A stretch of DNA of 64,000 nucleotides from Bilabrum cf. latius (GCA_965178125.1 OZ237766.1:558001-622000); one strand, 5' to 3'; shown: positions 1-64,000, counted from the first letter of the stretch. Numbers and translations: made by a program. The notes: generated by a model not told the origin, from the letters alone.

Positions 1-1
1 G

Positions 2-406
2 GCGCAGCGCGCATACGAAGCTGAAGCCAAGGTAGCCGCAGCCGAGGCAGCAGTGTAGGCGGCTGGAACGAAGATGCACCGCATTCGGAAGGAGAGGGGG
101 GAGGTGGAAGAGGAGCTGGCTAGGGCGCGAGCACGTGCAGACGCTGCGGGGGCCGAGGCGGAAGGCCTGAAGCGGGCCGTGGCAGCGCTGGAGGCGGAGG
201 TTCTGGACCATAGGCAGGTGCTAGAAGACACGCAGCGGACCCTCAGATCGTCCCAGCTGGCGGCGCAGCAGGGGGCGGGGGCCGCAAAGGAGCAAGCAGC
301 GGAGGCGGCGCGGCAGCGACGCACGGCCGAGGAGCTGCGGGAGGCATACGCCCGCCTGCAAATGACCCACCAGTCTCTGATCGGGAGCAAGTTGGCGGGG
401 GACTGA
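2..406 (+). CDS. 3' end of a coiled-coil protein (5' partial)
   Basis: Frame is open from the window start through an in-frame TAG (56-58) into ORF 74..406. Ala/Glu/Gln/Arg-rich heptad-like sequence, ends at TGA. Confidence 0.6.
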
Positions 407-827
407 TGGTGCCTGCTTTGAGTTTGCTTGCTGGCTTGATTGCGGATTGCCTGACCGATCATCATGATGACTGATTTACGTTTAGTGGAGCTGAACGTGC
501 GGTCCTGCTGTTGGGCCACGGGTGTGCACCCCTGATGACGATACTGTGCAGATGCTTTCTTTCAAATGGTAACCAAACAGCCGCCCTAGCGCTCAAGTTG
601 TTCTGTGTCACTGTTTGGCCATTTCTGCGACGGATCCATCCGGACTCGAAACCTGGGCCTACTAGGCCCTAAAATGCACTGCGAAGCTGCCTGTGCGTGC
701 TGCACTGAGATTTGAATCTGTCATATAGTATTAGTTCTTGCATATTCGCGAACGACTCTTTGCCAGCGATTTGAGTCAACGAGACTAGACTTAGAGACGG
801 ATCGTTTTTTTGAAATTCACTGTGATC

Positions 828-1334
828 ATGTCACATGCTGAAGCTTTTGCTGCCATGGCGTATGCAGAGTAGTGCCAGCTCAGCGATGTAGCTGGCATTA
901 CGCTGGATTCGAAGCATAGACCGGTCCGTGTAGTTGGATTACAACAAGGCGCGTCCGTGAATGGTGCAGCGGACGCAATGAGGTCATTTGAGGGGCAATA
1001 CATATCGGACGCATTAGTATTGCATCATGCTAGTATTCATCACGAAGATGATGATAAGCATGCTGCTAAATCCCTGGGTAACTCAGCTGGAATGCTGTCC
1101 GTAGCAAGCGATTAGTCCGGTCCCCCGGGATCTGGTGCATCCTCGCTATACTCTGCCAGCGCCTCGGAGGTATCGTCTGCCAGCAAGACGGGGGCGCTGC
1201 CTGTGGCAGCCATCACTTTGGATGATTTTACTTCCTCATGTGCGTCTTTCATAGGCGGTGGTGGTAGCCTGCAGTCCAGTGTTGCGATAGGTCGGTAGGA
1301 TATTGATGGTTTGGATGCTAAGACGCGACAGTAA
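828..1334 (+). CDS. Hypothetical protein (TAG read-through); 3' end uncertain
   Basis: ATG 828 is open to TAA 1332-1334 with only TAG interruptions. That TAA overlaps a GTAAGT donor-like site at 1331, so the gene may splice to an exon ending at TGA 1500. Confidence 0.4.
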
Positions 1335-1513
1335 GTATCCAACTATTGTAAGAGAGGCTTTGCGGTCAGGTATCGTATCGGATTTCTTTATTATTCAGAA
1401 ACTTGTAAGCTTAATTCGGTCGCCTTCAATTAAGAGTAGCGACCAGGATCTTGCTTCAAGATTATGCGTGTTGTTTGATAAATTGTTCCAAAAGTTTTGA
1501 TCAAATTACCAAG

Positions 1514-2968
1514 TCAATCAAATCTCTTTTTCATCTCGGAAATCGCTAATGCAAGACTATCTGCATTACGGATAGGCGTATGACGATCTCTGTAATAGTC
1601 AATTACTTCAAGAAATGGCTAATTTGCCTGAATTAGTCTTGCCACGTCTGCAGTACAGGCGTCAACCCATCCCAAATCCAAATAAATGAGAGTCCCACAT
1701 GGCCATGCTGAACATTTTTCCACAATACTTTCATCAATTCCTTTGCAACCCTCTAGATTGAGTGTTTCTAGCCGCTTACATGAATTGACCAGTGAACTGA
1801 TCCCGCATGCAGTCAAACCATCATTCCAAGAAACATCGAGGAATAAAAGACTGCTGGAAAGGGCACTCTTTGCAAGCTCAAACAAGTCAGCATCAATAAT
1901 ACACCCGCATCTTGCAAGAGATAGCTTCTGTAGATGGATACATGATGAAGCTAAGCTGCTAACGAGGTCCGTAGCTGAGTCCATGTCAAGTTTGCGAGCG
2001 ACAAACAAAAATAGACCAGGACACCGCTTCAGCAAGCAAGAGGCAAGCTCCTCATCCAAGCCATCACACCAGCTTAGATCTAGCTACTCTAGCTTTGAGT
2101 CCACCTTAGACGGGGTTGCAACTATGCTCTCAAGATCGATAGATGCTTCGGCAATACAAAGGATCCTTAATTTACCGCCCTCTGGTGAGAAGGCTGATTT
2201 TAGCATACTCTAAATCACATCTTCGTCTACAAGTCTGGTGCAATTGCACTTGAATTCCTCCAGCCGGGCACCATGTAGGTGATCCAAGGTCAGCGTTCGA
2301 TCTAATTCCACGCTAGATATGTCAAGCCCAGATAGCTTCATTAGTCCTAGCATACTGGATATAGCTTCGACCGAGAGAGACGTACCACAGCACCGTATCG
2401 TAGCTATAGACTTTGATTGAGACAGCGCAGCAAGGCATTCATCCGTGAATCCATCGCACCAGCTTGCATCCACTTCTTGCAGCTCTAAGCAGTTCATGGC
2501 CATCTACTCAAACACGACAGGGTCAGTAGTAGTCCTGCTTACGTCAACGGATTTTAACTATGGAAGGCCGCTGATACATCTGCACAGACTTGGCAGGTCG
2601 ATACTATGGCATCCGCTCAAGCTCAGAGACTGAATACCGGGTGATACTTCTGGTAAACACAATAGCGCTGGACCAATCTCAATAGGGCTCTCGTCCATAC
2701 AAATCGACGTGAACGTGCGTTTGGCAGTGTGTCGCATTACACTCTCAGTTAAGTGGCCAAGTCGTGCAAGCTGCTACAAAGCGCGCTCGCCATGAGATAT
2801 CCCAGTCTCCCCGATCTACGATAAAGCAGCAAAGGCTCCCTCATGCCATTCGCGATCTGTAGATGCTTTGCCTCCGGTTGAGACATACGCAACGATAGTA
2901 TCAACACACATTGCGGCTAGTGACGGCACGGCAGACGAGCACGGCCCCGGAGTGCCGCTCTTTGCCAT
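1514..2968 (-). CDS. Leucine-rich repeat protein (RNI-like / FBXL-type LRRs), 484 aa
   Basis: ORFs 2816..3097, 2210..2503 and 1619..2059 share one frame and are separated only by TAG (7 in total). Repeats include IQSLSLSGC, LQEVDASWCDGF, LE(TAG)LDLSWCDGL and LETLNLEGCKGI. Ends at TGA 1514. Confidence 0.85.
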
Positions 2969-3152
2969 GATACCTTTCGATTGAAACCGATAGTAGTGGA
3001 GCAGTGAGTCTAGTGCCACTGGATTAGCAGAGGGACGATTTGGTGATTCGTGCAGTGCAGTTGCACTATGGTATGGCGAATATGGAACACCGAACACACA
3101 CTATTGAGCACCAGGTTAGCACAAACAAACAGATCCTGCGAACGGTTTTATA

Positions 3153-4718
3153 TCAGTCCTGCCCCTCCACCTTTCGCTTCTTCCCTGCCATTCCAGCTTC
3201 AGCCTCATTCTCCTCCCGCCCACCCCCCTAATCACCCGCCGGCAAGTTGGCCTCTGAGCTGACCGTGCCCTTTTGCTCCTCTTCCTCCTCCCCGGGCCTG
3301 CCACGCTTGGACCCTACGAGCGCCTCCTGCCCGTCTCTACCCTAGCCCTTCTACTTCCCCTATCCCATATGCCCCTTACCCTTCCTCTTCGCCCTACTTT
3401 CCTCCTCATCCCCCTGCTGCTGCTGCTGCTGCTGCTCCCGCAGCGCCCGTGCGCCCGCCCATGCCTCTCGCACCACCTCCGCCCTGTGACGAGTGCCGAA
3501 AGTCAGATACGCCGTGTGCCCCGACTGGCTGCTCTTGGGGAACAGCGACCTGCCGAACCTCTCTGACTTCACCAGAGCCTCCGCTGCCGCAGCCTCGGAC
3601 ACAGCCCGCAGAGGAGCCCTAAACCCGGGAGGAGCGGGCGCAACGGCAGCGTGAGACTTCCGGGAGGAAGCCGAAGCAGACGCACCCGACGAAGATGAAG
3701 ATAAAGCTGACGAAGATGAAGTCGCCCCATCAGCACCAGTGCCCTGTCCCTCAACTACCCCTAACCCAATGCCCTTCCCATCTGCCCCCTTCATCCTCAG
3801 GACTGGCACATGCGCCAGCTTTGCCTCCACCACGTACTCCACCCCCAGCACCTCCACAGTATCCAGATCCACGAAACCGGCGCGGGCGAGGGCGGCGCAG
3901 TTCCGCTGCACCTGCTCGATGCATGGGCTGAAGCAGCAGATGCGGCCCCCGTGCTTCAACGCACTCCCCGCGTGAGGAATGGCCAGCCAGGGCGCGGGGA
4001 GGTCAAGGAACACTGCGTCCACCGCTGGTGAAGGTTCGCTGAGGCCCGCAGGGAACCCTTGGCTTGCGTCTCCGTGCGAGGACACGGCCAAGGGCCCACC
4101 TAGCCTGCCACACGGGCCGGCAGGTCGGAACGGGTCTGGTTCGCTTGCGATGGCGCTGGTGCTGGTGCTTGTGCTTGTGCTTGCCGCTGCAGCACCGGCA
4201 CCTGCTGGCGAGCCACTGTATCCATTATACTCGTTTCCCGCTTTTCCGTTCCCGATCCCCGTGCAAGCCAGCTCCTTGCGGGCGGCGTCCGCACGGCCAG
4301 CGTTGAACTCGAACGTGTAGACCCGTCCAGTCGGGGCAACTGCTCGGGCGAAACTGTGCGTTGCCGAGGCAGAGCCGGTTCCACTCTCGAGCACAACATG
4401 CCCAGGCTTCAACCGAAGGGCGGCAGTGACGGCTGCGATGTCCGGTGCGTACACGATCTGGGTGCGGTGCGACAGGTTCTCTGTCCAGTCCTCTGCCGAA
4501 GCACGGAAAGGCTTGCGAAATTCTTTGCCTCGGTGGTCGTACACGGGGGTTCCAGACATAACCCCAGCGATTGATTCGTGCCGAACGTATCCCTGCACCG
4601 TCTGAATTCGCTTGCCCGGCTTGAGTTTGATCAATTTCGTGTTTCTCGCATCCAACCACTTGATCACGTCCCCGTACTTGAGAAGCCACGGGCGGCGCGT
4701 CCCTTCAACAAAGTCCAT
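3153..4718 (-). CDS. TRMT61A: tRNA (adenine-58-N1)-methyltransferase catalytic subunit (Trm61/Gcd14)
   Basis: Motifs LSHRTQIVY, VLESGTGS, VYTFEF, AVFLDLPAPW, FSPCIEQV and GHTAYLTF. Four TAGs extend an acidic tail ending GKKRKVEGQD-TGA at 3153. Confidence 0.93.
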
Positions 4719-4887
4719 GTCAATCTACTTATCTACTAGTTAGCTAAAATCAGATAGCAACTGTTGTTGGACTAGTTGCAGTTTGTCGAATTAAGAAAGT
4801 TCCGCAAGTCTGCTCAGCGGCGCCGCCGGTGATCCGATCACACATACCACAAACCTCAGACAGGCATTGACAGGGGTACAGGTTGCC

Positions 4888-5698
4888 ATGCAGCCCGTTT
4901 CGCAGCTCGACCACGTGAGATAATAACCTTGATTTATAAGTCAATGCCTTGAGTCTCATGAATTTCCCAAGGACTCGGTAATTTTGCGCAAAGCCAGCAA
5001 TGTTGCGTTTGCTTGAAGGCAACCGAGCGCGCCAAGTGCAAGTCTACCAAGTAAACTTAATACCCGCACTAGTTTGATATCGCAGACCGAGAAGGCTTTC
5101 CTTCGCCAGCCTACCGTTTTCAACGCAAGGAAGAAGGCGCTGGGCCGCCGCCATGGCAAGGGCCTGCGCTTCGCTCGCAACGTCGGGCTTGGCATCAAGA
5201 CCCCCACTGAGGTCTTCACGGTGAGTTAAGTGCCGAAAGCTGTGATCATGTGTTAATCGAACGAAATACCTGCGAGACCCCGCTGGTACTGCACAGGGTG
5301 TGAGCACGGAATCCTCAACCATGTTTCAGTTCGATCGTGCCCTCATTTACGCCACGGCCACGCAGGAGAAGTACGTGGACAAGAAGTGCCCTTTCACCGG
5401 TGACGTGTCCATCCGCGGCCGTATCCTCAAGGGTGTGGTGATCAGCACCAAGATGCAGAACACCGCCATCATTCGCCGGGATTACTTGCACTACGTGCCC
5501 AAGTACCGCCGTTTCGAGAAGCGCCACAGCAACCTTGCTGTGCACGTGAGCCCTTGCTTCCGTATCAAGGAGGGTGACGTTGTGACCGTGGGCCAGTGCC
5601 GCCCCCTGTCCAAGACTGTTCGCTTCAACGTTCTGAAGGTGGACGCAGCCTCGGATGCCAACGCCCAGCGCTCCAAGAAGACCTTCCGCGTGTTCTGA
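4888..5698 (+). CDS. RPS11: 40S ribosomal protein S11 (uS17); exons 4888-4914, 5086-5220, 5366-5698
   Basis: [12 protein letters not shown]...[33 protein letters not shown]...[14 protein letters not shown]. Introns GTGAGA..CGCAG (4915-5085) and GTGAGT..CGCAG (5221-5365) restore the family alignment. TGA stop. Exon 1 is less certain. Confidence 0.95.
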
Positions 5699-6309
5699 GC
5701 GGTGCAGTCGCGACGTGGGATCGAATTGGGTTGATGCAAGCCGGAGGGGTCTTGTGTGGGTTGTTCGAGGCCCGGGGGAGGAGCTGGCTCCGGGCCGCTG
5801 GGGAGTAGGAACCGATGGTGGCGGACGGAAAGGCTGCGTTGGGGCGCGCGCGCGCGAGGTGTGGTGCGTCCTGAGTCGAAATTAGGTTCCAAGTACATAT
5901 ACTTGGACACACTGTGGCAGATGCTGAGGACAAACGATGCCTACTGGTAGTGAATGCTTCACTTGCATGAGGACATCATTTTTTGGCATTGGTGGGTTTG
6001 TTTTCTTCACTCGTCGAATAAAAACACATTACAACCGGTGCACATGTTGTCAGTCCCCAGCATGTCTTGCCAGTCGTCGTGGCCGCTGCCTCTCACCACA
6101 CCACTGCCAGTTCACGTGCAACACGATCCACAGTGCAGTGCTTTCGGTCAGTCTGGAATTAGCTGTTATTGAACTGTCTGTTGCCATTCCAGGTACCTTA
6201 GCAAGCTTCGTACTACCCAAAAAAAAAACACTCTTACTCTATTATCAGGTTGTTTTGCCTTATTGTACATTTCGTCGCCTGCTGACGCTTGCGAAGGCCT
6301 CAGCAAGAT

Positions 6310-9204
6310 ATGAGTTCTTCTGACGTACGGCTGCCCGAGGGATGGACGCTACACACTAGCTCAAAATCAGGCCGGCGATACGTGTTCAATAGTAACACTG
6401 GGACTTCAATATGGCTCATTGGGCAGTCTGACCGGGCTGTGATCGGCTCTCGTGAAGTCGGTATCGAGACGGCATGCGCTGAGCTTCTGCAGAAGAAATT
6501 GCCGCCAAAGCAAGAAAGCAAGCAGCCAGCTGTAGCCGCCAATAAACTAGCCCCTGCCCTTCCTCTTGAACATATTGGCCGGTTGAGCCGGCGCATTGCT
6601 GAGTTATGGATGATGGGGTCGTGTGAAGGTGCGATGGCTCAAATGCTGCACCCCACGGATAGGAACGGCATTAAAAACCCGACTAGTGAAGCTGTTTAGT
6701 GCTGGGACAAGTACCATTCAAAGGAGAGCACGCTACTAGATGAGCTTCGCGCTATCTTTGAGAAGCATGGTATGCTGTTCGATGCCAGCAGGCAGAGGCT
6801 GGTTCCGGCCACTCGCGGTCTGGACAAGCCGCCACCGAACATATTCTGGACTTTTATACCGCATGCAGCCCGAGTGATTGGGGCGGAGCCCCCGAATTGG
6901 AGGTGGGAAGAATGCACGAGGCAAGCCGACTCTCAGCTGCGTCCGTTCCACGTGCCCTCGTCTCGCGAAGAAATGCTTGCTCGCATGCAACTGGAGGGCA
7001 GATCGAAGCAGCAGGGCGAGCGTTAGTCTACCACGCCTGACCTCGGCCTATCAGGTGGCGCGATAGAGCCCGCCCGTCGAGCACTGTACGACTAGAGCAT
7101 CGCGCAGACCAGCATGGACTCATTCGTCGACGCTCAGTGGCCCGTCCCCCAACAGGTCAATGAGGCGGTGCGCAGCTACGTGCACCAGATCATATCGCCG
7201 GAGACGGCGAGGCATTCCCAGACCACCGATATTCTGCGGGGGGCGCTGCCCGTGCGCTGCATGGGAGCAGTCCCCACCCGTACTGTCGTGGTGGGTGCTG
7301 GCAGCTGCCCACCCGTGAGTGTGCGACACGGGGAACGAAACCAGGCGCAGGGGAAAGGAGCACCGGGGATTGGGTCAATAGAACGTCCCGATCGATCCAA
7401 GAATTCAGTGGTCAATGAGCCGGTTGATGTTTCCGCCCGTACCGGCGTTCCGTTCGGGGCAGCCATCAACGCCGCCATTCAAAGCGCCCTCAGCAACGCA
7501 TCCGCTCGTCATGCAGCCGTGGATCTGGTGCTGCTAGATCTGGAGCAGCCGACCGGTCGCAAGGAAAAGGTCGAATTGGACCCGATGGTTCCCAGCCAGC
7601 CGCTTATGCTCGGCCCCTACCTGTTCGCCATGTCTCCAGCCCAGCTCAGGCACTGCAACGGCGTCAGCAGAACCGCTCGCAATGGATGGGAAGCGGCCCA
7701 GTCGCTGCTCGCTCGGATCTCAGCCACCATGGGCGTGGTAACAACGCCCGCGGGAGCCCCTGCCCTGCAGCCCATCGCCCCTGACCTGGACTTCTGGCGC
7801 AACGGGCTCGCGGATCACGCTGCCGACCCCAGGCTGAGGGACGGCCGTATCGTGCCGGCGATTCCGCTGGAGCACCGCAACGCCCCGCTGGTCTCGCACG
7901 GCTGGCTCAGCTCGGACACCAAGAGCATGCTTGCGGCAGCGGTAGCAGTGGCTGACTCGAACGTCGTGCTGGAGCTGGGTGCCTGGTATGGACTGTCCAC
8001 CCGTCACATGCTGCGCATTCGTGCTGACGTGGAGATATGGTCTGCAGACTGGTACAAGGCCCCTGCAATGATCAACTACCGCCTGAGTCGGCTGACACCG
8101 TCGGACAAGTTGTTCTTCAACCATCCCAGGATGGACTGCTTCCTGGCCGGGGTCTCTGCCACCATGGCGGAGCAGCAGCAGCAAGTCCTACCCTCGCCGA
8201 AATCAACGTCGTCCCATGCAGCTGCGGTTTCTTCCTCTTCGTCTTCATCGCTGCTTGGAGCCTCAGGAGCGAGTGCTGGTGGAGCGACCGCGCAAGAGGC
8301 CCCGCGCCAGGCGGTTATGGCCATGAAGATGGACGCAAACGAGGCAATTCGTCACGCGAGCCGGATTGGCATCAAGCCTGGGGTCGTGTTCATCGACTGC
8401 GAGAAGAAGACTGGTCCTCTCATTGGGATGCTGCGGGCAATCCGCTCGTCCTTCCCCGACGCGATCATCGTGGGGGACGACTACATATACCCTTCCGTCC
8501 GGAAGGCCGTGGCGGCAGTCGTTGGAACTAGGGCTGTCGCGGGGGAGGAAGCCTACTGCATCGCGCCTCCGGGCCTGGTCGGCGCGTTCAAGGCACAGTG
8601 GAAGCTGGACGAGTCTGCATGCAGGCCCAGTGCCGCGCACCTGGCGTGCAAGGACAAGCTAGAGGTGAAGCGCGGGCGGCCGGACGCGGCAGCGGCAGTT
8701 GCCATGCTGCCGGGCCTCATTGGATCGTCTTGCTGGAGCCAGGCAGCAGCGGCAATATCTGGTGCGGGCCCGGGCTCGGCCGACGCAGAGTCGACCAAGG
8801 CGATTGGAGCTTCAGACGATGAGGGCGGACTCGGAAGCAAGCGATCCCGCTAGCCTATGGCTGCTTCCGGCGCAGAAGGGGAGCACGGCGGCGGGGCAGG
8901 GAAGGGAACGGCGGAGACAGAGCACGAGCCCGCTCTGAAGAGGTCTCGAACAGACGCAGCGGCAAGCGGTGAAGGCAAGGAAGGAAGCGATTCCCAGCTG
9001 AGCGAAGATGCCCTCTCCGTGTTCTTGCCGGGGTCCCTGGCCCGGTCTGCGATGCACTGCATTGCAGAGAGCAGGGACATAGCTGCGCTGGTCGAGAACT
9101 GGGGCCGCCTGTTCAAGCCCTTGCCGCGCTGCAAAGTGCCGGTACTCAACGCGGCTCTCCTATCCCCGTTAGACTATTTGTCGCACCACGTCAAGTTTGG
9201 TTGA
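6310..9204 (+). CDS. WW-domain + class I SAM-dependent methyltransferase protein, 964 aa (copy 1)
   Basis: Four track ORFs (6289, 6772, 7114, 8857) are in one frame, joined by TAG at 6697, 7024, 7093 and 8851, and end at TGA. WW: LPEGWTLHTSSKSGRRYVFNSNTGTSIW. MTase: VVLELGAWYGLST, VEIWSADW, VVFIDCEK, IIVGDDY. Confidence 0.85.
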
Positions 9205-9990
9205 AAAGCAGCCTGCGATCTGCTCCCAAGGCTTACACGACTCACTAGTGATGAGTTGTTTTTTCCAAGGTGTTCATAAAATGTGGTGGTCGTTCCAGAG
9301 CACCAGGGGGCATATGATATTTTATTGAAGAAAGTCGCATCATTAGCAATAAGCTGTGGCATCAATGATCCGAATTCAATAGACTAATCATAATTACTTT
9401 CAAAACCTTGCCTCGGAGCTCTAATTAAGACTTCCGAGCCCACTTAATATAGTTCTGAAATACTTGGACCCCGTTGCAGTGGGGTTGTGGGGCAATTTAA
9501 AGCTCTTGGAGCATCGGGCTCGATGGCTTCACGATCGGCATCCCAGCTCCTTTCCAATTCCAGCTTTGATCAAGCTGTTGCCAGCTTGATTTCCACCGGA
9601 GGTCTCGTATGCTCTCCAACACTGGCCAGACGAGAGCTCCGTGAGCTCCGCTGGTTGAAGTAATCAGTTTAGCCGAGTCATGGGCATCATCTGCCACCGC
9701 CATGAGGCCCGTTTCGCTGCACACTGCCAGCCTCTTTGCAAGCCGTTCCCTTACTGCATTTCAGGCTACTGATGTGGACCGGATGGGCCTCTGAAGCGAC
9801 ACCAAAGCCAAAAAAGGCAATACAAATTTGAATTCGCAGGGTCGTTGACGTCGTAGTCTGCAGGGTATACATCAGGCGAGACGTCTGGCCACTCCCACTC
9901 AGTCGCGTCGTCTTTGCTGCCTGCCAGGCCGCCACTCCCCTTGTTCACCTCGCCCTAGTGGTCCGACCCATCTCTCCTGTGATCCCATCC

Positions 9991-52307: not shown

Positions 52308-54721
52308 TCAAAAATTGCTCCCCGTGCGCCTGTTTGCGCCCCCGCCCCCCTTCGGCGGCACCCGCCGGCGAGCGCGCAGCACTGACGACACCCGAGCCGG
52401 GTCCTCGCCCGCCCCCGCCCCCTCCCCCTCCCCCTCCCCCCTCTCTCTGCCGCCACTGATATCCCGTCCTGTTCCCTAGTCCTAGTCCTAGTCCAGCTGC
52501 GGCCCGTCGCTGCCACCGTGCCCCCTGCTGGCCGAGAGGAGGTGCCAATACGCCGCGCACCGCTGCTGCACCTCCTCAGGAGGACCGATCCCGTCTTTGG
52601 CCACCCTGCCGCCGGACAGGCACACCACCTGGTCTGCCACCTGGGCCGCCTGCTGGATGTGGTGCGAAATCAGCACCACCGTGCGATGATTCTCGACAGC
52701 CTCCCTTCTCAGCTGCTGCAGCATCTCGGCTGCATCGGGCGCGTCATAGCTTGCGTCAGGCTCATCCACCACCAGAACAGGGGCGTTGGACAGCAGCAGC
52801 CGAGCGAAGGCCAGCCTCCCTGCCTCCCCTCCAGACAACTTCACCCCGGTCGGGCCCATGAGGGTGCCCCACCCCTGCGGCCAGCTGGCGCTCACGTCCC
52901 CCAGACCCACCTCGTCTGCCAGCCGTGCCGCTTCGTCCTCCACGAGGTCGGCGCTGGCCAAGCGAAGGTTCTCTAGTGCAGTTGCAACCAGCACGTGGGC
53001 GTGCTGCGGTGCAGACGCGATCAGGCGCCGCGCATCCATCAGCGGAACCTACCTGGTGTCGATCCCCCCCACCCTCACCGCCCCCTCCTGGGGGCATCGC
53101 ATCCCGCTCAGCAGCCCAATGAGCGTGCTCTTGCCTGCCCCGTTGCCCCCGCACACAAGGGTCACCGTCCCGGGCTCGCACCGGAAAGACACGCCCAGCA
53201 CTCCCCGCTCGCCCTATACGGACTCGGAGTCACCTTGGTTGTTCCCTGTGCGATGCACGAACCGCGCAGCCTCCACCTCAAGCACGACACCACCCTGTTC
53301 GCCACCCCCTTGCATCGTCTTCTCCGCTCTTCCCCCGCTCCTCATCCTCCTCGTCTACATGCCCTGCACCAGGCCCCGCACTCGCCTGGCTGCAGCCCCG
53401 TCAGGATCCATGTCGGGACAGCGGGCGCAATGGTCCGTGCCAGGGCCAAGGCGCAGTGTGACGAGTGCACCCTGCGAACCATCCTGCTCCTTCCTCATCT
53501 CCTCTCCACCTTCCTCCTCGTCCTTCTTGTTCTTCTTTCGGCCATCCAGGGGTTGATCCGATCCACCGGTGGACTCGGCCTGCCTTCCCCCCTGCACCTG
53601 CCTGCCCTCCTCCAGCATACCGTGGAGGTGCTGCAGCACGCCCATCTGCGCCCCCGCCCCCGCAATGGCCCTCCTGACCCTTCCCATGGGCACGAACAGC
53701 CGGTCCACGTTCCCCCACAGAGCAGAGCAGTCCCCCACGGTCATATCCCCTGCCAGCACTCGAGCCCCCGCCATGTACACGCAGGCCAGCAAAGTGCCCG
53801 CGTGCACCATCTGCTGCATGGTGGCAGATACCTGCGTGGCCGTCCAACCGGCTGCCTTCGCCTCCTGTTGCTTCCTGAAGGCAGCCCCCACCCGAGCCCT
53901 CACCTGATCCTCCCCGCACAGGCCCTTGATGGTGGCCGCACCCTGGACAGCGTCTGTCAGCAGCTGGGCCTGCCCCACTGAACGGGTGAGCCAGCGGCTC
54001 TTCATAACCTGCTCAGCCTGCGCACCTAGGTGCAGGACCAGCCCATCGGCCAGCACGCCCAGCAGGATGGCCCCGGCCACGTTGGGGAGCCGGTAGCGGA
54101 CGAGCACACGGTAGCACGTGTACACGACGCCCCCAACTGCAGGCAGGACCGTCCAAAGCGTCGAGTCAACGATGCGGTATCCAGCTGGCAGTGCGCGAGT
54201 GACGGTGGTCGCCACGTGACCTGCTTTCCTGGATTCCAGCCAGTCCGCATCGGACGCGAGGATCCGGTCCAGCAGCTTGCCACCGATGCCCTCTTCGACG
54301 ACCAGACGGGCGCGGTACTGCAGGTAGTACCTCAGCTCATCGCACCCTCGCACCAGCACTATACAAAGTCCGTACCAAGCGAATACGCTGGCAAATTCGC
54401 TGTACCTGGCAGCTGCATCTGTGCTGCAGTCCTTGTTGTTGCAGAGGACGGTGCTCGCTAAGATGTCCAAAGCCTGCCCCCTGAGGACCGGCGCATAAAA
54501 CCTAGAAGCGTACGATGCGATCAGGCATATCCAGACAGATACAATGTATGCTGCAGACTCCTGCAAGACGAAAGTTAAGCAGGTGCAGCATTCTGATTCA
54601 TTCAAGAAGCATGCATGCACTCGGAACCACCTAGGCCTACGCCCAGGCTAGCGGTACTCACAACTGTGCTCGGCAAAGCATAGGGCTGGACAAACTCCCA
54701 CACAAAGAGCCATGGGACCAT
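52308..54721 (-). CDS. ABCB-type half ABC transporter, intact copy; exons 54721-54662 and 54560-52308
   Basis: Intron GTGAGT...CTTAAC...TTGCAG (54661-54561). TMD then NBD with Walker A GGNGAGKST, LSGGE, VLVVDE and ISHH. Three TAGs lie between the TMD and the Q-loop. TGA at 52308. Confidence 0.85.
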
Positions 54722-54897
54722 TTACGGTTAAAGCAAAGTATTTTTGTCTGTAGACCTAACAGCTAGGGTACGCCGCGGCAACGGTACGAACGCGAGGATA
54801 TGGACCACGTGCGGCCGTGTCCAGCCGTCACAACAAAACCTATCGAAAGTTCAACAAAGTTCTTCATCAACTTCCGGATCCAATCACTGCGCGCCTG

Positions 54898-55030
54898 TCC
54901 CTACGTTCGCCCGTTTGGCCTTCGCTACAGCCCTCATCGATCCCTTCGAGACAAAATCGAGGATCTCTGAGTGGTCCTGCATGACTTGTAAGTGCATAGA
55001 GTGGAATATACGGTGTTCCCCGCGAACATG
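54898..55030 (-). mobile_element. Fragment of LINE family A
   Basis: Matches 15550-15680 and 17545-17665. Confidence 0.65.
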
Positions 55031-55113
55031 GCCGGGAGTCCTGACGTGTAGCGTGTGTTTTTCGAAAACCAGATACCCACCAGTCACCTCAGAAACGTGC
55101 TGGAAAGGTATCG

Positions 55114-58100
55114 ATGGCAGCCCCCGAGGATGAAGCATCCTGTGTATCGCGGGTCTTCTATTTTTGGGTATGGGACCACGTTGTCTCGCCGGCATTCTCC
55201 CGGGGAAGTCTGCGTGCTCGAGATCTGCCCGTACAGTCACGACGAGACAGTGCCGGCCAAATTAGGAGATCCTTTGAAGAAAGAATCGATACTTTAGGCA
55301 AAGACGACAGCCTATTCCTCATTCTCTTATAGCTTCACTGGTACAACATATCATTGTCTGGATTGTTGTGTCTGCTTTGGCTTTGTGTTTCGTGGAGTAT
55401 TCCATTTATGTTGGAATCCTTGCTATAGTCCATCGAATGCTCACAAAAATGTTCAGAAGGAGAAATGTGGGCTATGGCTGTGTGTCTATGGCTAGGATCG
55501 AGCGCACAGAGTCTTCTAGCTCAACATTTTTGGACGTTCGGAGAAAGAGCGGGAAAGCACATACAAATGCAATTGCAGCACGCTGTTCTAAAGATGTCGA
55601 TCGGAACATCTCCGATTCAATAGTAGCATACAGGCACAACTGGATTTCCTTCTCCCGTAACGTCAGAGGCAAGTTCCGGCAAAAACTCAACACCGACTGC
55701 TGATCCCGTGACGCTGCTGACTTCAGACTGTACAATGATTTCAGACAAGAACATCCTTCCATTCTTGCATTGGACTACATGGTGTTGCCTCTTTGACCTG
55801 GTCTTCTCGCTATACAACTGCTACCGGCTGCTGGGCTGGCCCTCATTGCTCGGAATCGGCGCGATCATGTTGGTGGTACCGCTGGCAGCGTGGCTGCTGC
55901 GCTGCTCCGTGCAGCAGTTGAAGGCCATACAGGCCGAGCGTGACGCCCGTTCTGCCTTCACAAAGGCAGTCCTCACCAACTGGCGCTCCTTCAGGGCTGC
56001 AGGTGCCCTTGACATGCTGATCCCCAAGGTCGCGGCTCATGCTTCAGCAGCGATAGATCTTGGCCGTCAAAGAAGTCCAAATTCGAAACCTAGTTGGGGA
56101 TTTCGTAGCGGTTTCGAGTGGGCACAAAATCTATCAATTGCATCCCCGTGGTCTTGGAGCCCTGAAGACGTTCTAGGAGACCAGTCGGCCTCTTTGGACG
56201 GAAGGTTCTTCTCTGGGCTGCTCTCAGCGAGGGCTATTGAGGAGGCCCCCCTGACCAGCTGGATGGCGCTATACGTAGCTTCCCGCACGCTAACCATGTT
56301 CGGGTAGGTGGCTCTGATATCTGCGTCTATCGCATCCTACGCTCTGCTGGGGCACAACGTGCTGCGAGCCAGCGTGGTGTTCCCGGCCATGTCCTGGCTG
56401 AGCCGCGTCGAGCTGCCTCTCCTCATTTCACCGAAGGGGATCTAGAGCATCCTGGCGTACAAGGTATCCGTCGATCGTATTTAGGCGTACATCTAGACTA
56501 TGGGTGGAGTGAATGGAAGCGCTGGAAGTCAGGAGCATGGAGCAGGCCTCGCGAGAGTGGAAACCAAGCAGAATCTGACCGGTGACGCGGCTCTGGAGCT
56601 TGTCGCTGCATCATTCGGTACGACAAACACGAAAACGAGAGAGAATAGCAAGGCCAAGGACAGCAACGAATATCACACTTCCGGGGGGCGGTAGGTGCTA
56701 CGGTCCGTGACTTTGCAGGCCCGAGCCGGGCTCACCGTGGTCTCTGGCCGCATTGGCTCGGGCAAGACCGCTCTGGTCTCTGCTGCCATGGGCTCCCTCC
56801 AGTGCACAGGGGGCACTGTCATCGTGCGCGCGCGCGTTCGTGCCGTGATGCAGCAGTCCCCCTGGATCATGCGGCGGTCCATCCTGCGGAATGTGAGGTT
56901 CACCACCGAAGCGTGCCTCCTCCCTCGGGCCATGGTCTGGCGGGCCCTGGAGCTCTGCTGCCTGGCTAAAGACATCAGGGCATTGCCCAAGGGCTTGGAC
57001 TCGGCCATTGGTGAAAGGGGTACAAACCTATCAGGGGGGCAGCGGGCCCGACTGGCATTGGCTCGCACGCTGTGCCACTGCTGGGCGCGGGCAGACACCA
57101 GCGCGCCCGTCTCCCGGCAGCTGGAGGGTCACCTGGTGCTACTGGACGATCCCTTGACTGCGTGCGACGCCATCACGAGGCAGGCGCTGCTGCGAGGGGC
57201 AATCATGGACCTGGCCTCTAGGGGTGCTGCCGTGCTGCTGACCACGGGCGATCCCTAGACGGTGCTGCAGGCGAGGGAGGTGCAGCCGGTGCTGGCCGGG
57301 CACTTTGTGATGGAGGAGGGTGGGGTGATGGATGGGGTGGATAAGAGATAGCTTTGGCAGGGATAGGAAACAAATAACGTAGAAGGGCATGGACGTAAAT
57401 AGACAGATGGCGTTGGATCGGTCGAGGTGCCTGGTCATGTGCTAGGAGGTGAGGACGGCAATGTGCCTATGAAGGCAGAAGTAGTTCGTCCACCAGGCCA
57501 GCTTTTCAATCTAGGCGACTTCGCATCTGAAAGGAAAATCGTGCAAGCTGCAGAGTGTGCAGATATCGCAGTGCCCGCATAGGTCCCGCCACTGCTCGCC
57601 GATGTGTCCACCCGAGTGAACAGCGAGGCGGGGGCTGTCTCCGTCGGTGCAGATGTGAGGGACGTTGAGGAGCAACTGGAAGAGCTGATGGATTAGGCGG
57701 ATGCTGATGCAGGTAAAAATGGTGCAGTGAGCCTCGAGACGGTAGGTGCATACATTTGCTCTTGCGGTCCCGCCCCCATCGTGTTTTTGATCTGCCTGCT
57801 GTCCGTGCTGAATCCTTTCCTGTAGGGGGTGGGGTCCTCCTTCTGGCTGTCCAAGTGGGTCTCCTACTCGGAATCGCACGGGGAACACGCGGACAAAGGC
57901 ACGCTGGACATGTACGCCTGGGTCTTCGTGGGACTGGGAGTGCTCGACATTTTGCTGGTGTGCACCCGTCTCTTCGCCACCCTCATGGGTGGCCTCACCG
58001 CGTCCTCGTCCATCCACGACAGGGCCGTGGCATCCGTGGTGGCGGCCCCTGCCTCCATCCTCGATGCACTCCCCCTGGGCCAAGTGGCCAATCGATTCAT

Positions 58101-60477
58101 CAAGGACCAGCAGGGGCTCGATATGCAGCTTCGGCCTGCCATCTCCGACCTAGTCTCCTCGGCCACACAGCTCGTGTCCATAGGGGCGGCCATATGCACC
58201 ACCTCACCGTGGATCCTCTTGGGCATCGTGGGGCTGGCGTACCCCTACTGGCTCGCGGGAGACAGACTCAGGGTATCGGCCCGAGCCCTGCAGCGCCTCA
58301 AGGGGGGCACCCGGGCCCCGATGACGGCCCACCTCACAGAGGCGTGCTCGGGGGCACAGCTCATCCGCGCGCATGGGCCCGCTTCCAGCGCCTTCATCGT
58401 CAGGGAACACGGGCGAATGTCGGAGCTGTACATGAGTGCCGACCTGACCCGCATGTGGGTCAACCAGTGGGCGGCCCTCTGGTTGGAGCAGTTCGGCTGC
58501 GCGCTGGTGCTGTGCGCTGCCTTGCTGGCTGTGGGCGAGGCGCACAGGGGAAGCGCGGTGGCGAGCACGATCGGTTTCTCGCTCACCTACGCGCTCAATC
58601 TGCCTGGCGTGCTCATGTGGCTCACTCGGAATACCGCTGCCGTTGAGATGAACATGGTCGCTGCCGAGCGCATGCTGGCCATCGCTGACCTACCAGTGGA
58701 GGAGGCCCGCAAGCCGGCCTCCCTTCAGTCTGAGCAGTTCCGCAGGGCAGTTGTTGATCCCTAGCTGGTGCGCACCAGGGTGTAGGCACTGGCGTCAGCG
58801 GGAGTGATCTCCTCTATCACACTCCCCAATGTCGATCCTAGGACGGGAGTCTCCGCCGGAGTGCAGCAGGTCCCCCGCCGGGTGGTGCTCCACCCCGAGT
58901 GGGTGAAGCAGAGGAGCGTAGTAGACGGCGGTGGGGTGCGGGTCGGGGGCGAGGCTGGGGAACATCGCGGATACGATGCGCCCGGCATGGCATTGGCTGC
59001 TGATGATGAGTACGGGAGGGCGGGGCGGCTGCGGGCTCTGTATCCAGAGGAAGGGGCTGGGCTGGATGTGGTGTTTGACGGGATCTGGCTGCGGTACAGT
59101 CCCTTTAGCGGAGACCTCGGTGTGCTCAATCGAGACGCAGGATAGCAAAAGAAGAAGAAGTAGAATAAAACGGCTGGACAGCACGGAGGCAAGTAGGCAT
59201 CAGGAACACTCATGCAATCGTCTTAGGAGCTCACTGGCGCTGCCGCTCCCTTGTTGGGAGCTGCCGATTCTCCTATGGATGAGTCGCTCCAGGACGAGGA
59301 CCAGGGCGTGCTAGCCCTGAGGGGGGTGAGTCTGGCCATCCCAGCGGGGTGCAAGGTGGCGGTGGTGGGCCGCAGCGGGGCAGGGAAGAGCACGCTCGCA
59401 TCCTGCCTGTGCGCCCTATACGAACACCAGGGGCAGGTGCGGGTGGGCGGCTCGGATGTGCGGGACCTGGGGCGGGTGGGTATCCAGAGGCACTGCACTG
59501 CGGTGGTGCAGGGCGACGCGGTGACACCCGGTCTGACTCTCCTGGAGAACGTGCTGGGGCCCCGCCTGCTGGCGGAGGGGTGCGCTCGGGCCGCCCGACT
59601 GGAGGGGATTCGAAGGCACGAGATGGCGCGGGGGGGAGGGTATGAGGGGGCGATGAGGGGGCACGTGGTGGTGGAGGGGGGGATGGGGATGGGGCCACAG
59701 AATCGGATCAACGAGATTCGCAGGAGGCGGGGGCTGGGTAAGCTGCCCGCGTAGGTCGAGCCCGGCGTGGGTGATGGCAGGGAAGAGGCTCCACTCCTGC
59801 AGCTGGGGCTGGCTGCACTGGAGGCAGTGGGGTTCTTCGCTTCCATCGGGCTCGCAGGTGCCTCGGACGACCGCAAGAAAAGGGCCTTGCGACTCCCCGT
59901 GGACAAGGACAAGCCCCTCACTGAGGTGTTCACGAGGAGGCAGCAAGCCACCGGGGAGGGAGACGACTTGTGCTGCGTGCCAGCTTGCTGTCCCTCGACA
60001 GGGACTTGTACAGGGAGCTTCCAGCAGTAGTCTCGGCGGGGGTGTCTAGCCACAGGTGAACTCGACCACACCCACCCGGACTCCCCCGGGCGAGATGTGG
60101 CCTCCAGCCCTAAGGCCCTGCACCTGTCTGCAGGACAAAGGGAGCTCGTGGCAGTGGCCCGCGCACTCGTCAGGAGAAGGCCGGTGCTGCTGCTGGACGA
60201 GGCGGCGGCGGCGGCGGATGCCACGTCAGCGGATTCGGTGCACCGGGCCGTGATGCGGGGTGGTGCTACCGTAATCACGATCTGCCACCGCCTGCAGCAC
60301 ATCGGGGACTTCGATGCGGTGGTCGTCATGGACCAGGGGCGCGTGGTAGAGGCGGGGCCCCCGGGTGATTTGCTTGCCAATGAAACGGGCTGGCTTTCGG
60401 AACTTGTGACGGAGTGGAGGTTTGTGACTAGTAGTTTGGATGGGGAGGCCAGGCCCTCTCGTGAGTAGACCTCCTGA
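55114..60477 (+). CDS. ABCC (MRP-like) full ABC transporter, 1787 aa, single exon
   Basis: Nine track ORFs (55114...60097) are in one frame joined by TAG. Motifs: PEDEASCVSRVFYFW, GRIGSGKT, IGERGTNLSGGQRARLALAR, VLLDDPL, FWLSKW, VEMNMVAAER, GRSGAGKST, LSAGQRELVAVAR, LLLDEA, ITICHRL. TGA at 60475. Confidence 0.92.
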
Positions 60478-60819
60478 CCGGGGCAGCGACAGGATCATGA
60501 TATCTCTGTGGTTGATGTTTCATCAATAGACTATTCTGCATGAAAGGCACGGACAGGCATAGCCCAAGGCAAGCTTGGTCACATTGAACGGAAGTAAAAA
60601 GTAAAAAAGAGTGGTCTTTGTTCCAGCAATCTGGACTTAGATGTGTTCCGTTGATAGGATTACAGGGAATACTATTCTGACTTCAGAGAGCAGCCTATCC
60701 GACAATGACCGACAGACTTTGAGTTGACACAAATCTTACTACATAGCGATTTCACACTACTGGTTAGATTTTTGAGCGTCGCACTCTTTGACGAGAAATT
60801 TAACCAGGCGGATCCGGCC

Positions 60820-61027
60820 GAAATACAGAAATACAGAAATACATTGTTGGGTTAAGTTACCGAACCCGCCACAGATGCACCATATCTCAGGTGATCACCT
60901 GCAGCGGTAGGAGCCCTCATAAGAGGACTACAAGACCCCCGACCCTTTCAGACCAAAGGCCCCCCATATACCGGCCCTGATGTTGGGACCTCCCTTTGTC
61001 GCCTTCAAGCCCTCCTTCGCAGCAGTC
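60820..61027 (-). mobile_element. Diverged 3' end of retroelement family B
   Basis: GAAATACAGAAATACAGAAATACATTGTTGGG and GGACTACAAGACCCCCGACCCTTTCAG are shared with 46705-46860. Confidence 0.75.
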
Positions 61028-61114
61028 CCGGAGCCTTTATTTCGGCCGTCGATCGGTAGGAGTAGCGTGCAGGTTTGGGAATATCAGATTACCACTGGTG
61101 GCACCAAACGCACC

Positions 61115-63256
61115 ATGAGGCGTGACCACATTCAGGAGCAGAAGAAGAAGATGGATCGTATCGTAGCTGCTGTGTCTCAATATGTAGAGCTATGTGCACA
61201 TAAGATGCCGCAAATCCGGTTCAAAATGGACTGCAAGGTCAATGTCGACGTCGACGACGTTTGCTCTGCAGAGGTCAGCTTTCGACTTTGCCTTGACCGA
61301 CCAGATAAACAGCTCTGCAAAGACATCCCAGCTTCCATCCAGAGATCAGAGCTGAATGTCACTTTTTCTACCACTAGTGGATCTAGGGACGCCCAGGAGA
61401 CGGAGCTTGCGGCGACGGTGCTTGCCGAGAACCTCGTTCTCGATGCCATCAAGCAGACTAAAAGCCTTCATAATCCATTGGATGCAGTGCGCGTAGTAGG
61501 AGGGAGTTTAAAAGTAATTGGCAATGGTGCTGTTGCTGTTCTAGGCAGCGAGACGTCCATCGCAAGGCTGCTTGGAGGCTGCAGCTGTGAAAGAAAGACG
61601 GGTGAAGGCGCAGCGACAGTCGTCGTCTCCGTGCAGCAGCTAGCCAAATGTCTGGGAGCATCGGGGTCCGAAGAAGCACGCGCAGAGCTTCTGCGTACTG
61701 CATTGCGCCGCCGTGGGAACGCTGCAGCTGAACGCCTATACAATCGATTGGAGCACCTGCGCAAAACCAAACCTACCAAGTACAAAGTGTACCGACATCT
61801 GGATGAGCTTATCATGTGGATCAACCAATGCTTACCAGGACACGGGGCTAAACTACATGCCCGCGACGAAGCAGCGTCATACGCGGCGAGAGCACGAGCG
61901 GTCGAGTGGGCCAACACCGGGCCAGCAGGTGCGGGGAGATCGCACTTGGTGACGGGAGTCCATGTTGCCCGTAGCGGTGCAGGTTCCGCAGGTGGTGGCT
62001 GGAGGGGAGGTCGCGCTGGCCGTGGCGGTGCAGGGTCCGCAAGCGGTGGCTGGAGGGGAGGTCGCGCTGGCCGTGGCGGTGCAGGGTCCGCAGGTGGTGG
62101 CTGGAGGGGAGGTCGCGCTGGCCGTGGCGGTGCAGGGTCCGCAGGCGGTGGCTGGAGGGGAGGTCGCGCTGGCCGTGGCGGTGCAGGGTCCGCAGGCGGT
62201 GGCTGGAGGGGAGGTCGCGCTGGCCGTGGCGGTGCAGGGTCCGTAGCCGGGGTTCGGCGTGACTTAGACAAAGTGGCTGTGGCTGCCGATGAAGTAGCTC
62301 GCTTAATTTCTCATGATGTGTACGTGATGTGCACCGTAGATTTTTGGGACGATAGTGGATCAGCTCTCCTCCAGCTCAGTTTGCCAGGTGGCAAGAGACG
62401 GCTGGGGGAGACTGAGGCCCACTGTGCAGTGAGAGAATTCAACGAAGAGGTGCAAGGACTGTCCACCTCATATGACAGACTGAGGCGAGGGACTCGAGGC
62501 ATCTTGCATGGAGGGCTGCGATCTGAAAGTGGGTTCATCCGACCGGACGGCAAGATGATTTTCCTCGTCGGAGATGACGCTATAGAAGTGGAACGGTCCG
62601 ATGGGTCGGCAGCCGATCCTGCCATGGCATCCGCTGCTGCAGCCGGTACGACTACGGCTGCATCGGCCGGTGCGTCGGCAGCCGATCCTGCCATGACACC
62701 CGCTGCTGCAGCTGGTACGACTACGGCTGCATCGGCCGGTGCGTCGGCAGCCGATCCTGCCATGACACCCGCTGCTGCAGCTGGTACGACTGCAGCTGGT
62801 ACGACTACGGCTGCATCGGTCGGTGCGTCGGCAGCCGATCCTGCCATGGCATCCGCTGCTGCAGCCGGTACGACTGCAGCTGGTACGACTGCAGCTGCAT
62901 CGGTCGGTGGGTCGGCAGCCGATCCTGCCATGGCATCCGCTGCTGCAGCCGGTACGACTGCAGCTGGTACGACTGCAGCTACATCGGTCGGTGGGTCGGC
63001 AGCCGATCCTGCCATGGCATCCGCTGCTGCAGCCGGTACGACTGCAGCTGGTACGACTGCAGCTACATCGGTCGGTGGGTCGGCAGCCGATCCTGCCATG
63101 ACACCCGCTGCTGCAGCCGGTACGACTGCAGCTGGTACGACTGCAGCTACATCGGTCGGTGGGTCGGCAGCCGATCCTGCCATGACACCCGCTGCTACAG
63201 CCGGTACTACTGCAGCTGCCTCGGCCGGTGCGTCGGCGGCTGACCCTTCCACCTAA
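61115..63256 (+). CDS. RGG-repeat Nudix-box protein with C-terminal AADPAM repeats
   Basis: Uninterrupted ORF with Nudix box PGGKRRLGETEAHCAVREFNEEVQG (G-x5-E-x7-REUxEE). TAA stop. Start uncertain because homology to the paralog begins at about 61051. Confidence 0.8.
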   Translation: MRRDHIQEQKKKMDRIVAAVSQYVELCAHKMPQIRFKMDCKVNVDVDDVCSAEVSFRLCLDRPDKQLCKDIPASIQRSELNVTFSTTSGSRDAQETELAATVLAENLVLDAIKQTKSLHNPLDAVRVVGGSLKVIGNGAVAVLGSETSIARLLGGCSCERKTGEGAATVVVSVQQLAKCLGASGSEEARAELLRTALRRRGNAAAERLYNRLEHLRKTKPTKYKVYRHLDELIMWINQCLPGHGAKLHARDEAASYAARARAVEWANTGPAGAGRSHLVTGVHVARSGAGSAGGGWRGGRAGRGGAGSASGGWRGGRAGRGGAGSAGGGWRGGRAGRGGAGSAGGGWRGGRAGRGGAGSAGGGWRGGRAGRGGAGSVAGVRRDLDKVAVAADEVARLISHDVYVMCTVDFWDDSGSALLQLSLPGGKRRLGETEAHCAVREFNEEVQGLSTSYDRLRRGTRGILHGGLRSESGFIRPDGKMIFLVGDDAIEVERSDGSAADPAMASAAAAGTTTAASAGASAADPAMTPAAAAGTTTAASAGASAADPAMTPAAAAGTTAAGTTTAASVGASAADPAMASAAAAGTTAAGTTAAASVGGSAADPAMASAAAAGTTAAGTTAATSVGGSAADPAMASAAAAGTTAAGTTAATSVGGSAADPAMTPAAAAGTTAAGTTAATSVGGSAADPAMTPAATAGTTAAASAGASAADPST
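61970..62243 (+). repeat. Coding tandem repeat, 51-bp unit (GGAGSAGGGWRGGRAGR), about 5 copies
   Basis: Directly visible periodicity. Confidence 0.95.
62603..63247 (+). repeat. Coding tandem repeat, 69/84-bp units (SAADPAMxxAAAAGTTAA...)
   Basis: GTCGGCAGCCGATCCTGCCATG recurs about 8 times. Diverged equivalents occur at 21720-21980. Confidence 0.9.
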
Positions 63257-63480
63257 GAAGTGTCAGGAGTTGGAGAGGAACAAGAAGGGGACGCCGGCAC
63301 AGGCGACCATAGTGCGGTGTCGATGGGAGAGCATAATGGGAGGAAGGGGGTTTCAGGTGCAAGGCACGAGGGGGACGCGAGTGGCAGCGGGCTGCATGGC
63401 CAGCGGCGTGCAGAGGGGGCGCATGGCAGGTTGGCCAGGACCTGCAAATGCAAGCTAAGATGATCGGCCAAAGGTGGCGA
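63257..63480 (+). repeat. Diverged dispersed repeat (partner 36000-36245)
   Basis: Inverted similarity to 36000-36245. Confidence 0.7.
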
Positions 63481-64000
63481 CGCAGTCGTTCGGGGTGGAG
63501 CCCGGTAGGTCCATGGGACCGGGGGCAGGATTTTTTATTTTTGGTAACTGCTAATCAGTGGGGGTTGCATTAGCCGTAAAGATTAGCCAATGGGTGTGAT
63601 TGAAGTAATAAATCTGATGTATATGTAGTCTAGGTCTGATAACATCCAGGATATTTAAACCTAGACTAAATAAAAAGGCTTAGACATCTACACCACGTTA
63701 TAATCCGGATGCTAACGCCGAATGGGGTTTGGGGTTGATGTGACGATCCGATGCGTTCGAGACTCGAACACACAGTACACAAAACGAAATGGATTAACCG
63801 TAAACCATGAAAATCTGATCCAAAAGATGGTCTATGAATGCTAATCCAAAAGATGGTCTATGAATGCTGCTCCTCCTGGTCAAGGGCTTTATACGTGGGA
63901 GCGCACAAATTTGCTTGAGGTGGTCAAAAGGTCCAAGAACTTCACCATGGCAGATCTCGCCAGGGTGGTGCGCAAAGCACGCCCCTTCGCGATGGCCAGG

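Follow-up and report, generated by a model that had tools for sequence, protein, structure and literature searches.

UAG as a sense codon, probably for glutamine, in GC-rich nuclear DNA of Bilabrum cf. latius

This study concerns the genetic code used by the genes in a stretch of 64,000 nucleotides from Bilabrum cf. latius (GCA_965178125.1 OZ237766.1:558001-622000), which is referred to here as the window. A preliminary description of this DNA had claimed that UAG is a sense codon while UAA and UGA remain stops, and had mentioned Gln (NCBI table 15) without settling on an amino acid. That claim is supported by the statistics of the reading frames, by their domains, by contigs that resemble RNA and by a relative that shows the same features, and our data indicate that the amino acid inserted at UAG is very probably glutamine. 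Only a handful of lineages are known in which a nuclear code treats UAG and UAA differently. Each UAG-only case tests why UAG and UAA usually change jointly and how the release factor eRF1 becomes blind to UAG.

Genes and reading frames of the window

The genes and introns of the window are listed in Table 1. The preliminary description had named LRR, TRMT61A, WW-domain methyltransferase, ABCB, ABCC and Clu genes, and Pfam found the corresponding domains, with a weak match for LRR and with WW as the family in the WW proteins. The ABCC gene also matches solved YCF1/MRP structures (E 6.6e-80), and some of its database matches are green algal. Pfam found no family in ten further frames taken from the gaps between genes. 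The content of guanine plus cytosine (GC) is 52-63% per 4-kb step.

Table 1. Genes and introns of the window. TAG codons are those in frame; X1, X5 and X7 are sequencing runs described in the text.
Feature	Coordinates	Strand	TAG codons	Stop	Remarks
LRR protein frame	1514..3115	-	7 after first ATG	TGA	Pfam LRR_6 E 1.9e-5 (weak)
TRMT61A/GCD14 tRNA m1A58 methyltransferase	3153..4739	-	4, all in C-terminal tail	TGA	PF08704 E 2.1e-62
RPS11/uS17, last two exons	5086..5219 + 5364..5698	+	0	TGA	GT..AG intron 5220..5363
WW-domain protein copy 1	6286..9204	+	4	TGA	Pfam WW
ABC half transporter (ABCB type) copy 1	9991..12198	-	6	TGA	Pfam ABC_membrane + ABC_tran
Repeated-element frame	17316..18920	-	5		No Pfam family; fragments 15138..16411, 48144..48473, 54887..55261
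NUDIX-like repeat-rich protein copy 1	19536..22022	+	3	TAA	Weak match
CLU+TPR protein copy 1	22938..28397	+	28	TGA	1819 codons
CLU+TPR protein copy 2	36277..46038	-	34	TAA	3253 codons, 9.76 kb; repeat-array extension
GT..AG intron directly upstream of CLU copy-2 ATG	46013..46131	-			Missing from X5 and X7 contigs, kept in X1
WW-domain protein copy 2	48603..51521	+	4, same places as copy 1		98.4% nucleotide identity to copy 1
ABC half transporter copy 2	52308..54827	-	7 after first ATG		99.1% nucleotide identity to copy 1; frame crosses intron 54560..54660
Intron of ABC half transporter copy 2	54560..54660	-			GTGAGT..CAG; missing from one X5 contig
ABCC/MRP-type full transporter	55045..60477	+	25, over both halves	TGA	1810 codons
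NUDIX-like protein copy 2	60923..63256	+	0	TAA	87% nucleotide identity to copy 1 over 1182 aligned bases

Under the standard code the window contains 22 stop-to-stop frames of at least 300 amino acids, the longest of 1026. With TAG read as sense there are 41 such frames, and three of these (3253, 1819 and 1810 codons) contain 34, 28 and 25 TAG. As a control, TAA or TGA was read as sense instead, and the longest frames were then 1034 and 1027 codons. Since neither control opens a long frame, only TAG lengthens frames. This agrees with the earlier observations that conserved genes are interrupted almost only by TAG and that one frame is kept for up to 9.7 kb without TAA or TGA.

Frame statistics were taken over 12 frames with 13,378 codons from the first ATG on, duplicates counted; because of the way they were built, these frames lack TAA and TGA. 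They contain 127 in-frame TAG. Read in its two other frames, this DNA contains 4.0 TAA and 22.8 TGA per 1000 codons, jointly 26.8, and at this density a frame of 3253 codons without either is far beyond chance. The density of TAG per 1000 codons is similar in frame (9.5) and off frame (10.7), which indicates that TAG is not avoided within the frames. TGA is the stop of nine of the 12 frames and TAA that of the remaining three, in line with the preference for TGA over TAA given in the preliminary description. Pfam domains lie on both sides of in-frame TAGs across the 12 frames. In the ABCC gene the second nucleotide-binding domain (NBD) is located past most of the 25 TAGs.

The duplicate copies allow the fate of individual TAG codons to be followed. 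The same description held that TAG positions are kept between duplicates, and 34 of the 41 codon pairs involving TAG are indeed TAG in both copies. The duplicates of the WW protein differ at codon positions 1, 2 and 3 by 7, 8 and 31 nucleotides. This excess at third positions indicates purifying selection on a frame that bears TAG. The CLU duplicates differ by 49, 47 and 59 at the three positions, which looks relaxed.

A relative with the same code and contigs without introns

The best match of the TRMT61A protein of the window is P0134, a metagenome protein of 290 residues that ends abruptly after 'SPCMEQV'. The two proteins are 68% identical by BLASTP, 72% in the alignment and 73% over 312 tree columns, whereas none of the named TRMT61A matches among the best 120 listed exceeds 46% identity, and these belong to a mixture of kingdoms. 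The metagenome contig that encodes P0134, L001, has 13,538 bp and a GC content of 57.3%. Here the codon after the end of P0134 is TAG, and the frame then continues to a TGA. The TRMT61A gene of L001 contains 2 TAG, one of them within the catalytic core, a frame with RCC1 and RabGAP-TBC domains contains 31 in 2451 codons, and a frame of 494 codons without a Pfam family (10742..12226, minus strand) contains 4, so that the three frames hold 37 in-frame TAG. Judged by eye, the 494-codon product may be a secreted protein with a right-handed beta-helix of the pectin-lyase-like type. All four stops checked in L001 are TGA. The RPS11 proteins of L001 and the window are 92% identical, and the divergent RPS11-TRMT61A gene pair is kept (window 3153..5698, L001 7786..10366) despite a TRMT61A identity of 72-73%. 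The presence of the same TAG pattern in L001 indicates that the pattern is a property of a clade, beyond one assembly.

A search of representative proteins also found fragments of an ABC half transporter from close relatives. P0254 and P0255 are 91% and 76% identical to the protein of the window. A third fragment, the cluster member P0405, ends with 'AAFRMQ', where the window and the unbroken P0404 continue with Q, which suggests that the break after P0405 is a TAG. All three fragments are reported from a contig of the same length (4,076 bp) and are therefore presumably one gene cut at in-frame stops. Annotation of this genome with the standard code truncates most long genes, and public collections already hold genes of its relatives chopped by standard-code calling, namely P0134, P0254, P0255 and P0405.

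At least six sequencing runs from three studies contain the ABCC stretch wholly or partly, five of them with at least half of its words. All of these runs consist of contigs, and none of the listed runs is recorded as RNA. The contigs of four runs were placed on positions 44001..64000 of the window. The contigs of X5 and X7 derive from an organism, called organism B here, that is about 1% diverged from the window. In both runs position 46012 is joined to 46132, and the skipped stretch reads GTGAG..CAG on the gene strand. One X5 contig also joins 54559 to 54661, where the skipped stretch reads GTGAGT..CAG on the gene strand. Neither intron joint occurs in X1 and X6. Depth varies from gene to gene in X5 (3 to 170) and is flat in X1. 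Because they lack two GT..AG introns, the X5 and X7 contigs are RNA-like, and from these joints and the uneven depth we infer that they behave like RNA. Record 9 of X5 (44207..46012) has 15 differences from the window, all of them listed, and 9 of its 10 in-frame TAG are unchanged, while one is TTG. This suggests that splicing and editing leave the TAGs of 44207..46012 in place. TAG retention could be followed completely for this one 1.8-kb contig stretch, 40 of the 351 differences overall being listed. In the contig of the WW protein none of the 8 differences listed, out of 17 in total, falls at a TAG.

The amino acid inserted at UAG

That TAG means glutamine in the window organism is very probable. 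In the well-aligned blocks shared by the window and L001, TAG stands opposite CAG in all five pairs, with the TAG in the window twice and in L001 three times. One pair lies in TRMT61A, where L001 has 'EQV-X-RNC' and the window 'EQVQRNC' (X is TAG). The other four lie in the repeated element. Two of them come from a single block, 'AAXHQHVRGEQ' in the window and 'AAQHXHVRGEQ' in L001, the third from 'VRTQKGAVRS' and 'GVKXKGAVRS', and the fourth from 'VEFLXVLD' and 'VESLQKLD', the window being given first each time. Synonymous sites beside the TAG/CAG pairs differ, so TAG and CAG act as synonyms. In the TRMT61A of L001, residue 291 is a TAG, and 102 of 119 homologues have Q in this column (H 5, S 3, L 3). 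In the RCC1 region of L001, the TAG in 'WGLDDLG-TAG-VSG' lines up with the glutamine of the motif G-Q-L/V-G in 5 of the 7 UVR8 and 2 of the 4 SRM1 repeat alignments that extend to the site. The TAG position in the RCC1 sequence 'T-TAG-[SD]G' is variable across solved RCC1 proteins.

Within the window the ABCC gene was compared with a profile hidden Markov model of 120 homologues from which the query was excluded, using match states with a posterior of at least 0.8. Over 8 TAGs the log-odds summed to 4.6 for Q, 3.4 for K, 2.9 for E, 2.2 for N, 0.6 for S and -5.7 for L. In a control with sense codons represented by at least 8 columns, the profile named the true residue for 39 of 45. When sets of 8 columns were drawn 20,000 times from the ABCC gene of the window, the observed margins corresponded to the 22nd to 52nd percentile of true Gln sets. 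Of the Glu sets, 3.3% attained the observed margin; the share was 0.9% for Lys, 0.03% for Ser and 0.01% for Arg, and for Leu it was 0 of 20,000. The TAG sites of the ABCB gene, compared with ABCC-type and ABCB-type NBDs, fall in variable columns with little information. A search with the CLU protein gave 13 matches that cover only 10-22% of the query and belong mostly to TPR-repeat families, and these were useless for TAG columns.

Several observations weigh against UAG as a glutamine codon, or against UAG as a sense codon at all. The evidence base is the 64-kb window and the 13.5-kb contig L001, which is below genome scale. ARAGORN predicted no tRNA in the window or L001 (77.5 kb), where Rfam matches were also lacking, and neither sequence contains a gene for eRF1. 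The automatic label of X5 is 'RNA? (probably DNA)'. Inside the window the lead of Gln over Glu and Lys in the ABCC profile is small, 1.2 to 1.7 nats, and when two ABCB columns are added Q stays first narrowly, with a lead reduced to about 1.3 nats. The ABCB NBD column slightly favours E, with E 63, D 54, S 33 and Q 25 in 301 domain alignments. In the fragments of relatives that are 76-91% identical, a window TAG faces E at two variable sites, and in the remaining 7 of the 41 duplicate pairs TAG is opposite GAG (2), CAG (2), TTG (1), AAG (1) and GGG (1). A crude MAFFT column count on ABCC had S -5.1, L -5.6 and A -5.6 as its top scores and gave no decision. Next to TAG, Q is enriched 1.41-fold and E stands at 0.77-fold, but taken as a whole the flanking residues do not inform the assignment.

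These points bear on three alternative explanations. UAG may be a sense codon that means glutamate or lysine. UAA and UAG both encode glutamate in peritrichs and Blastocrithidia. In the ciliate PL0344 UAG is reported as Glu and UAA as Lys (PMC11687900). The E at two sites of the close-relative fragments, the GAG opposite TAG in two duplicate pairs and the AAG in one, the richness in E of the ABCB NBD column, and the second and third rank of K and E in the ABCC profile all fit such a code. Both E-facing sites are however variable, and GAG is one step from TAG. The five TAG/CAG pairs in conserved blocks, including the reciprocal exchange of X-H-Q in the window for Q-H-X in L001, also argue against glutamate and lysine, as do the TRMT61A column, where E is outside the six commonest residues, and the small share of true-Glu and true-Lys sets that match the margin of Q. 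We therefore regard Glu or Lys as improbable. A still smaller chance is left for UAG remaining a stop, with the frames representing pseudogenes or assembly errors, or with the TAGs being spliced out, edited or read through. The RNA nature of X5 and X7 is an inference, and the codon-position pattern of the CLU duplicates is that of relaxed sequence, both of which are compatible with this view. The 127 TAG in frames that lack TAA and TGA over 13,378 codons, on DNA where TGA is frequent off frame, are not, and the same pattern recurs in the independent metagenome contig L001, even in a catalytic core. The shared TAGs of the duplicates, the third-position differences of the WW copies, the retention of 9 of 10 TAGs in contigs without introns, and the presence of this DNA in independent runs from three studies point in the same direction. 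Serine, as in Scotinosphaera, or leucine, as in the rhizarian exLh and some phyllopharyngean ciliates, has the least chance of all. Green algal matches among the ABCC hits, the top rank of S and L in the crude column count, where all scores are negative, and one TAG that is matched by TTG in a duplicate copy as well as in organism B can be cited for them. In the ABCC profile S and L are far below Q, and none of the homologous pairs has TCN or AGY opposite TAG. The TRMT61A tree places the window and L001 outside the starred clade (97) that groups Scenedesmus and Chlamydomonas with land plants. The UAG=Ser code of Scotinosphaerales was thus rejected on profile scores, resampling and a tree position outside Viridiplantae, and the UAG=Leu code on its log-odds of -5.7 and the 0 of 20,000 true-Leu sets.

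With glutamine as the preferred reading, the window is best explained as nuclear DNA from a eukaryote that is rich in GC (about 57%) and has spliceosomal introns. UAG is an ordinary sense codon there and most likely a third Gln codon (NCBI table 15). If it is Gln, UAG would supply about one fifth of the Gln codons. Termination takes place mostly at UGA and otherwise at UAA. By analogy with organisms of the same code, UAG may be decoded by a tRNA-Gln whose anticodon is CUA and which probably arose from a mutated tRNA-Gln(CUG); it would read UAG and ignore UAA, and the N-domain of eRF1 would no longer recognise UAG. In PMC5304391 it is argued, for Iotanema and for the rhizarian exLh, that UAG can be read without UAA by anticodon CUA only, and the GTS motif of the Iotanema eRF1 has T32G. 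The code change most likely predates the split between the window and L001, because L001 has the same code, GC content and TGA-dominated stops.

Known codes and the position of the organism

Codes in which UAA and UAG both mean glutamine (UAR, NCBI table 6) are used by many ciliates, Dasycladales, Trentepohliales, Cladophorales, hexamitid diplomonads, Streblomastix and Amoeboaphelidium. As in these codes, glutamine appears to have taken over a stop codon in the window, and a mutated tRNA-Gln is the probable route. Unlike in these codes, the long frames of the window have no TAA inside and three of 12 end at TAA. The UAR=Gln code was rejected because TAA as sense opens no long frames and three frames stop at TAA. 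The TRMT61A of Amoeboaphelidium is just 36% identical to that of the window.

A change of UAG only has been described for Iotanema, where it means Gln, and a rhizarian, where it means Leu (PMC5304391), for Scotinosphaera of the Ulvophyceae, where TAG is Ser and TAA and TGA are stops (PMC8271138), and for Protocruzia and several phyllopharyngean ciliates, with Gln, Leu and other amino acids (PMC11687900). The preliminary description had rightly named Iotanema and some ciliates as known cases and had omitted Scotinosphaera. A UAG-only Gln code is thus already known, and the novelty of the lineage depends on the identity of the organism. The window resembles Iotanema spirale (PMC5304391, PMC9161772), Protocruzia tuzeti and phyllopharyngeans (PMC11687900) in having UAG as a sense codon opposite Gln and UAA and UGA as stops, and the expected mechanism, a tRNA-Gln(CUA) with a UAG-blind eRF1, would be that of table 15 organisms. 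In contrast to Iotanema, for which PMC5304391 gives UAA as the dominant stop, the window is GC-rich and TGA is the main stop. Compared with table 15 organisms the window is a long multi-gene stretch of chromosome with ordinary introns, and the code is also that of L001, whose TRMT61A is only 72-73% identical, so that it marks a clade and not one species. With Scotinosphaera (PMC8271138) the window shares a UAG-only change in a non-ciliate that keeps UAA and UGA as stops, but serine is rejected in the window and its TRMT61A falls outside Viridiplantae in the tree. A literature search that did not cover supplementary files gave no paper describing UAG=Gln for a non-ciliate with a GC-rich genome.

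The organism is difficult to place with the genes at hand. The TRMT61A tree has 40 rows, 38 of them picked from the 120 listed matches with the other 82 left out, and was built with a quick method. In this tree the window and L001 sit on a branch 2.4 long that is attached to nothing, and the tree puts the window organism, as judged from this one protein, outside the green algae. Comparison of RPS11 with solved ribosomes gave scores that span just 169 to 142 bits, and a comparison with the Atlas gave generic eukaryotic clusters only. It is therefore conceivable that the code is as described and that the organism belongs to a lineage already known for UAG=Gln, such as the caviomonad fornicate Iotanema, Protocruzia or the phyllopharyngean ciliates, since TRMT61A, RPS11 and the Atlas gave no firm affiliation. 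The RPS11 exon scores 166 bits against 8br8 and 7pwf, which we take to be Giardia ribosomes, as against 169 for the best entry; human is within 10 bits, and the signal is very weak. The window, 64 kb of multi-gene DNA with 57% GC, introns of 101 to 144 nucleotides and large duplications, seems unlike the gene-sized macronuclear chromosomes of ciliates. The named entries within the best 120 listed TRMT61A matches include neither a ciliate nor a metamonad, and the literature search mentioned above gave no GC-rich non-ciliate with this code. The frame ends are dominated by TGA (9 of 12 in the window, 4 of 4 in L001) and not by UAA as in Iotanema (PMC5304391). Membership in a known lineage is thus unlikely, although less so than the other alternatives considered above.

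A tentative alternative, to which we give a little less than an even chance, is that the window and L001 represent an unrecognised environmental clade of eukaryotes, neither ciliate, fornicate nor green alga, which is GC-rich with UGA as its main stop and captured UAG for Gln independently before the two diverged. Stated more broadly, an independent and clade-wide origin of the code in a eukaryote of uncertain position has a fair chance. Such a GC-rich case with TGA as the main stop is a poor fit to explanations of stop-codon capture that rely on AT-rich genomes. The window appears to be accompanied by an assembly, runs of at least two further strains and a divergent relative with the same code, so sequence data could show the changes in tRNA and eRF1 directly and a tree could date them. 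If the clade exists as proposed, it would also be a natural candidate for the hosts of giant viruses with the same code, whose alternative-code genomes (GVMAGs) are catalogued in PMC13524828. Such viruses imply hosts in which UAG is read as Gln. The window itself, unlike these viral genomes, is cellular, with RPS11 and spliceosomal introns. Scans of viral contigs with two proteins of the window, the WW protein and the repeated-element frame, found no relative and showed no link.

Much of the window consists of recent segmental duplications (6286..12198 and 48603..54827; 22938..28397 and about 40590..46038, inverted; 19536..22022 and 60923..63256). The inverted CLU copies are 97.1% identical in nucleotides. 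In copy 2 an array of 24.9 units of 126 bp each (82% matches, 36306..39446) adds about 1,000 residues and encodes armadillo-like repeats of 42 residues. Other frames on both strands are open over this array for 749 to 1024 codons as a side effect of the repeat. The NUDIX-like paralogues differ in their coding tandem repeats (20618..21327, 61969..62250 and 62706..63218). One copy has a 57-bp unit repeated 12.5 times that is rich in Gly and Arg, and the other has a 51-bp unit repeated 5.5 times and an 84-bp unit repeated 6.1 times that are rich in Ala and Thr.

High-copy repeats lie at 46669..48669 and 60676..61342, where the summed word depth in X1 is 1,875 to 6,919 and 1,580, compared with about 75 in the flanks. 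Contigs of X1 join 48338 to 54908, 55030 to 60820 and 44597 to 60821, which suggests alternative arrangements or haplotypes at high-copy repeats. The repeated-element frame, with its copies in the window and one in L001 (12167..13074, 57% identity), is probably a mobile-element protein common to the lineage.

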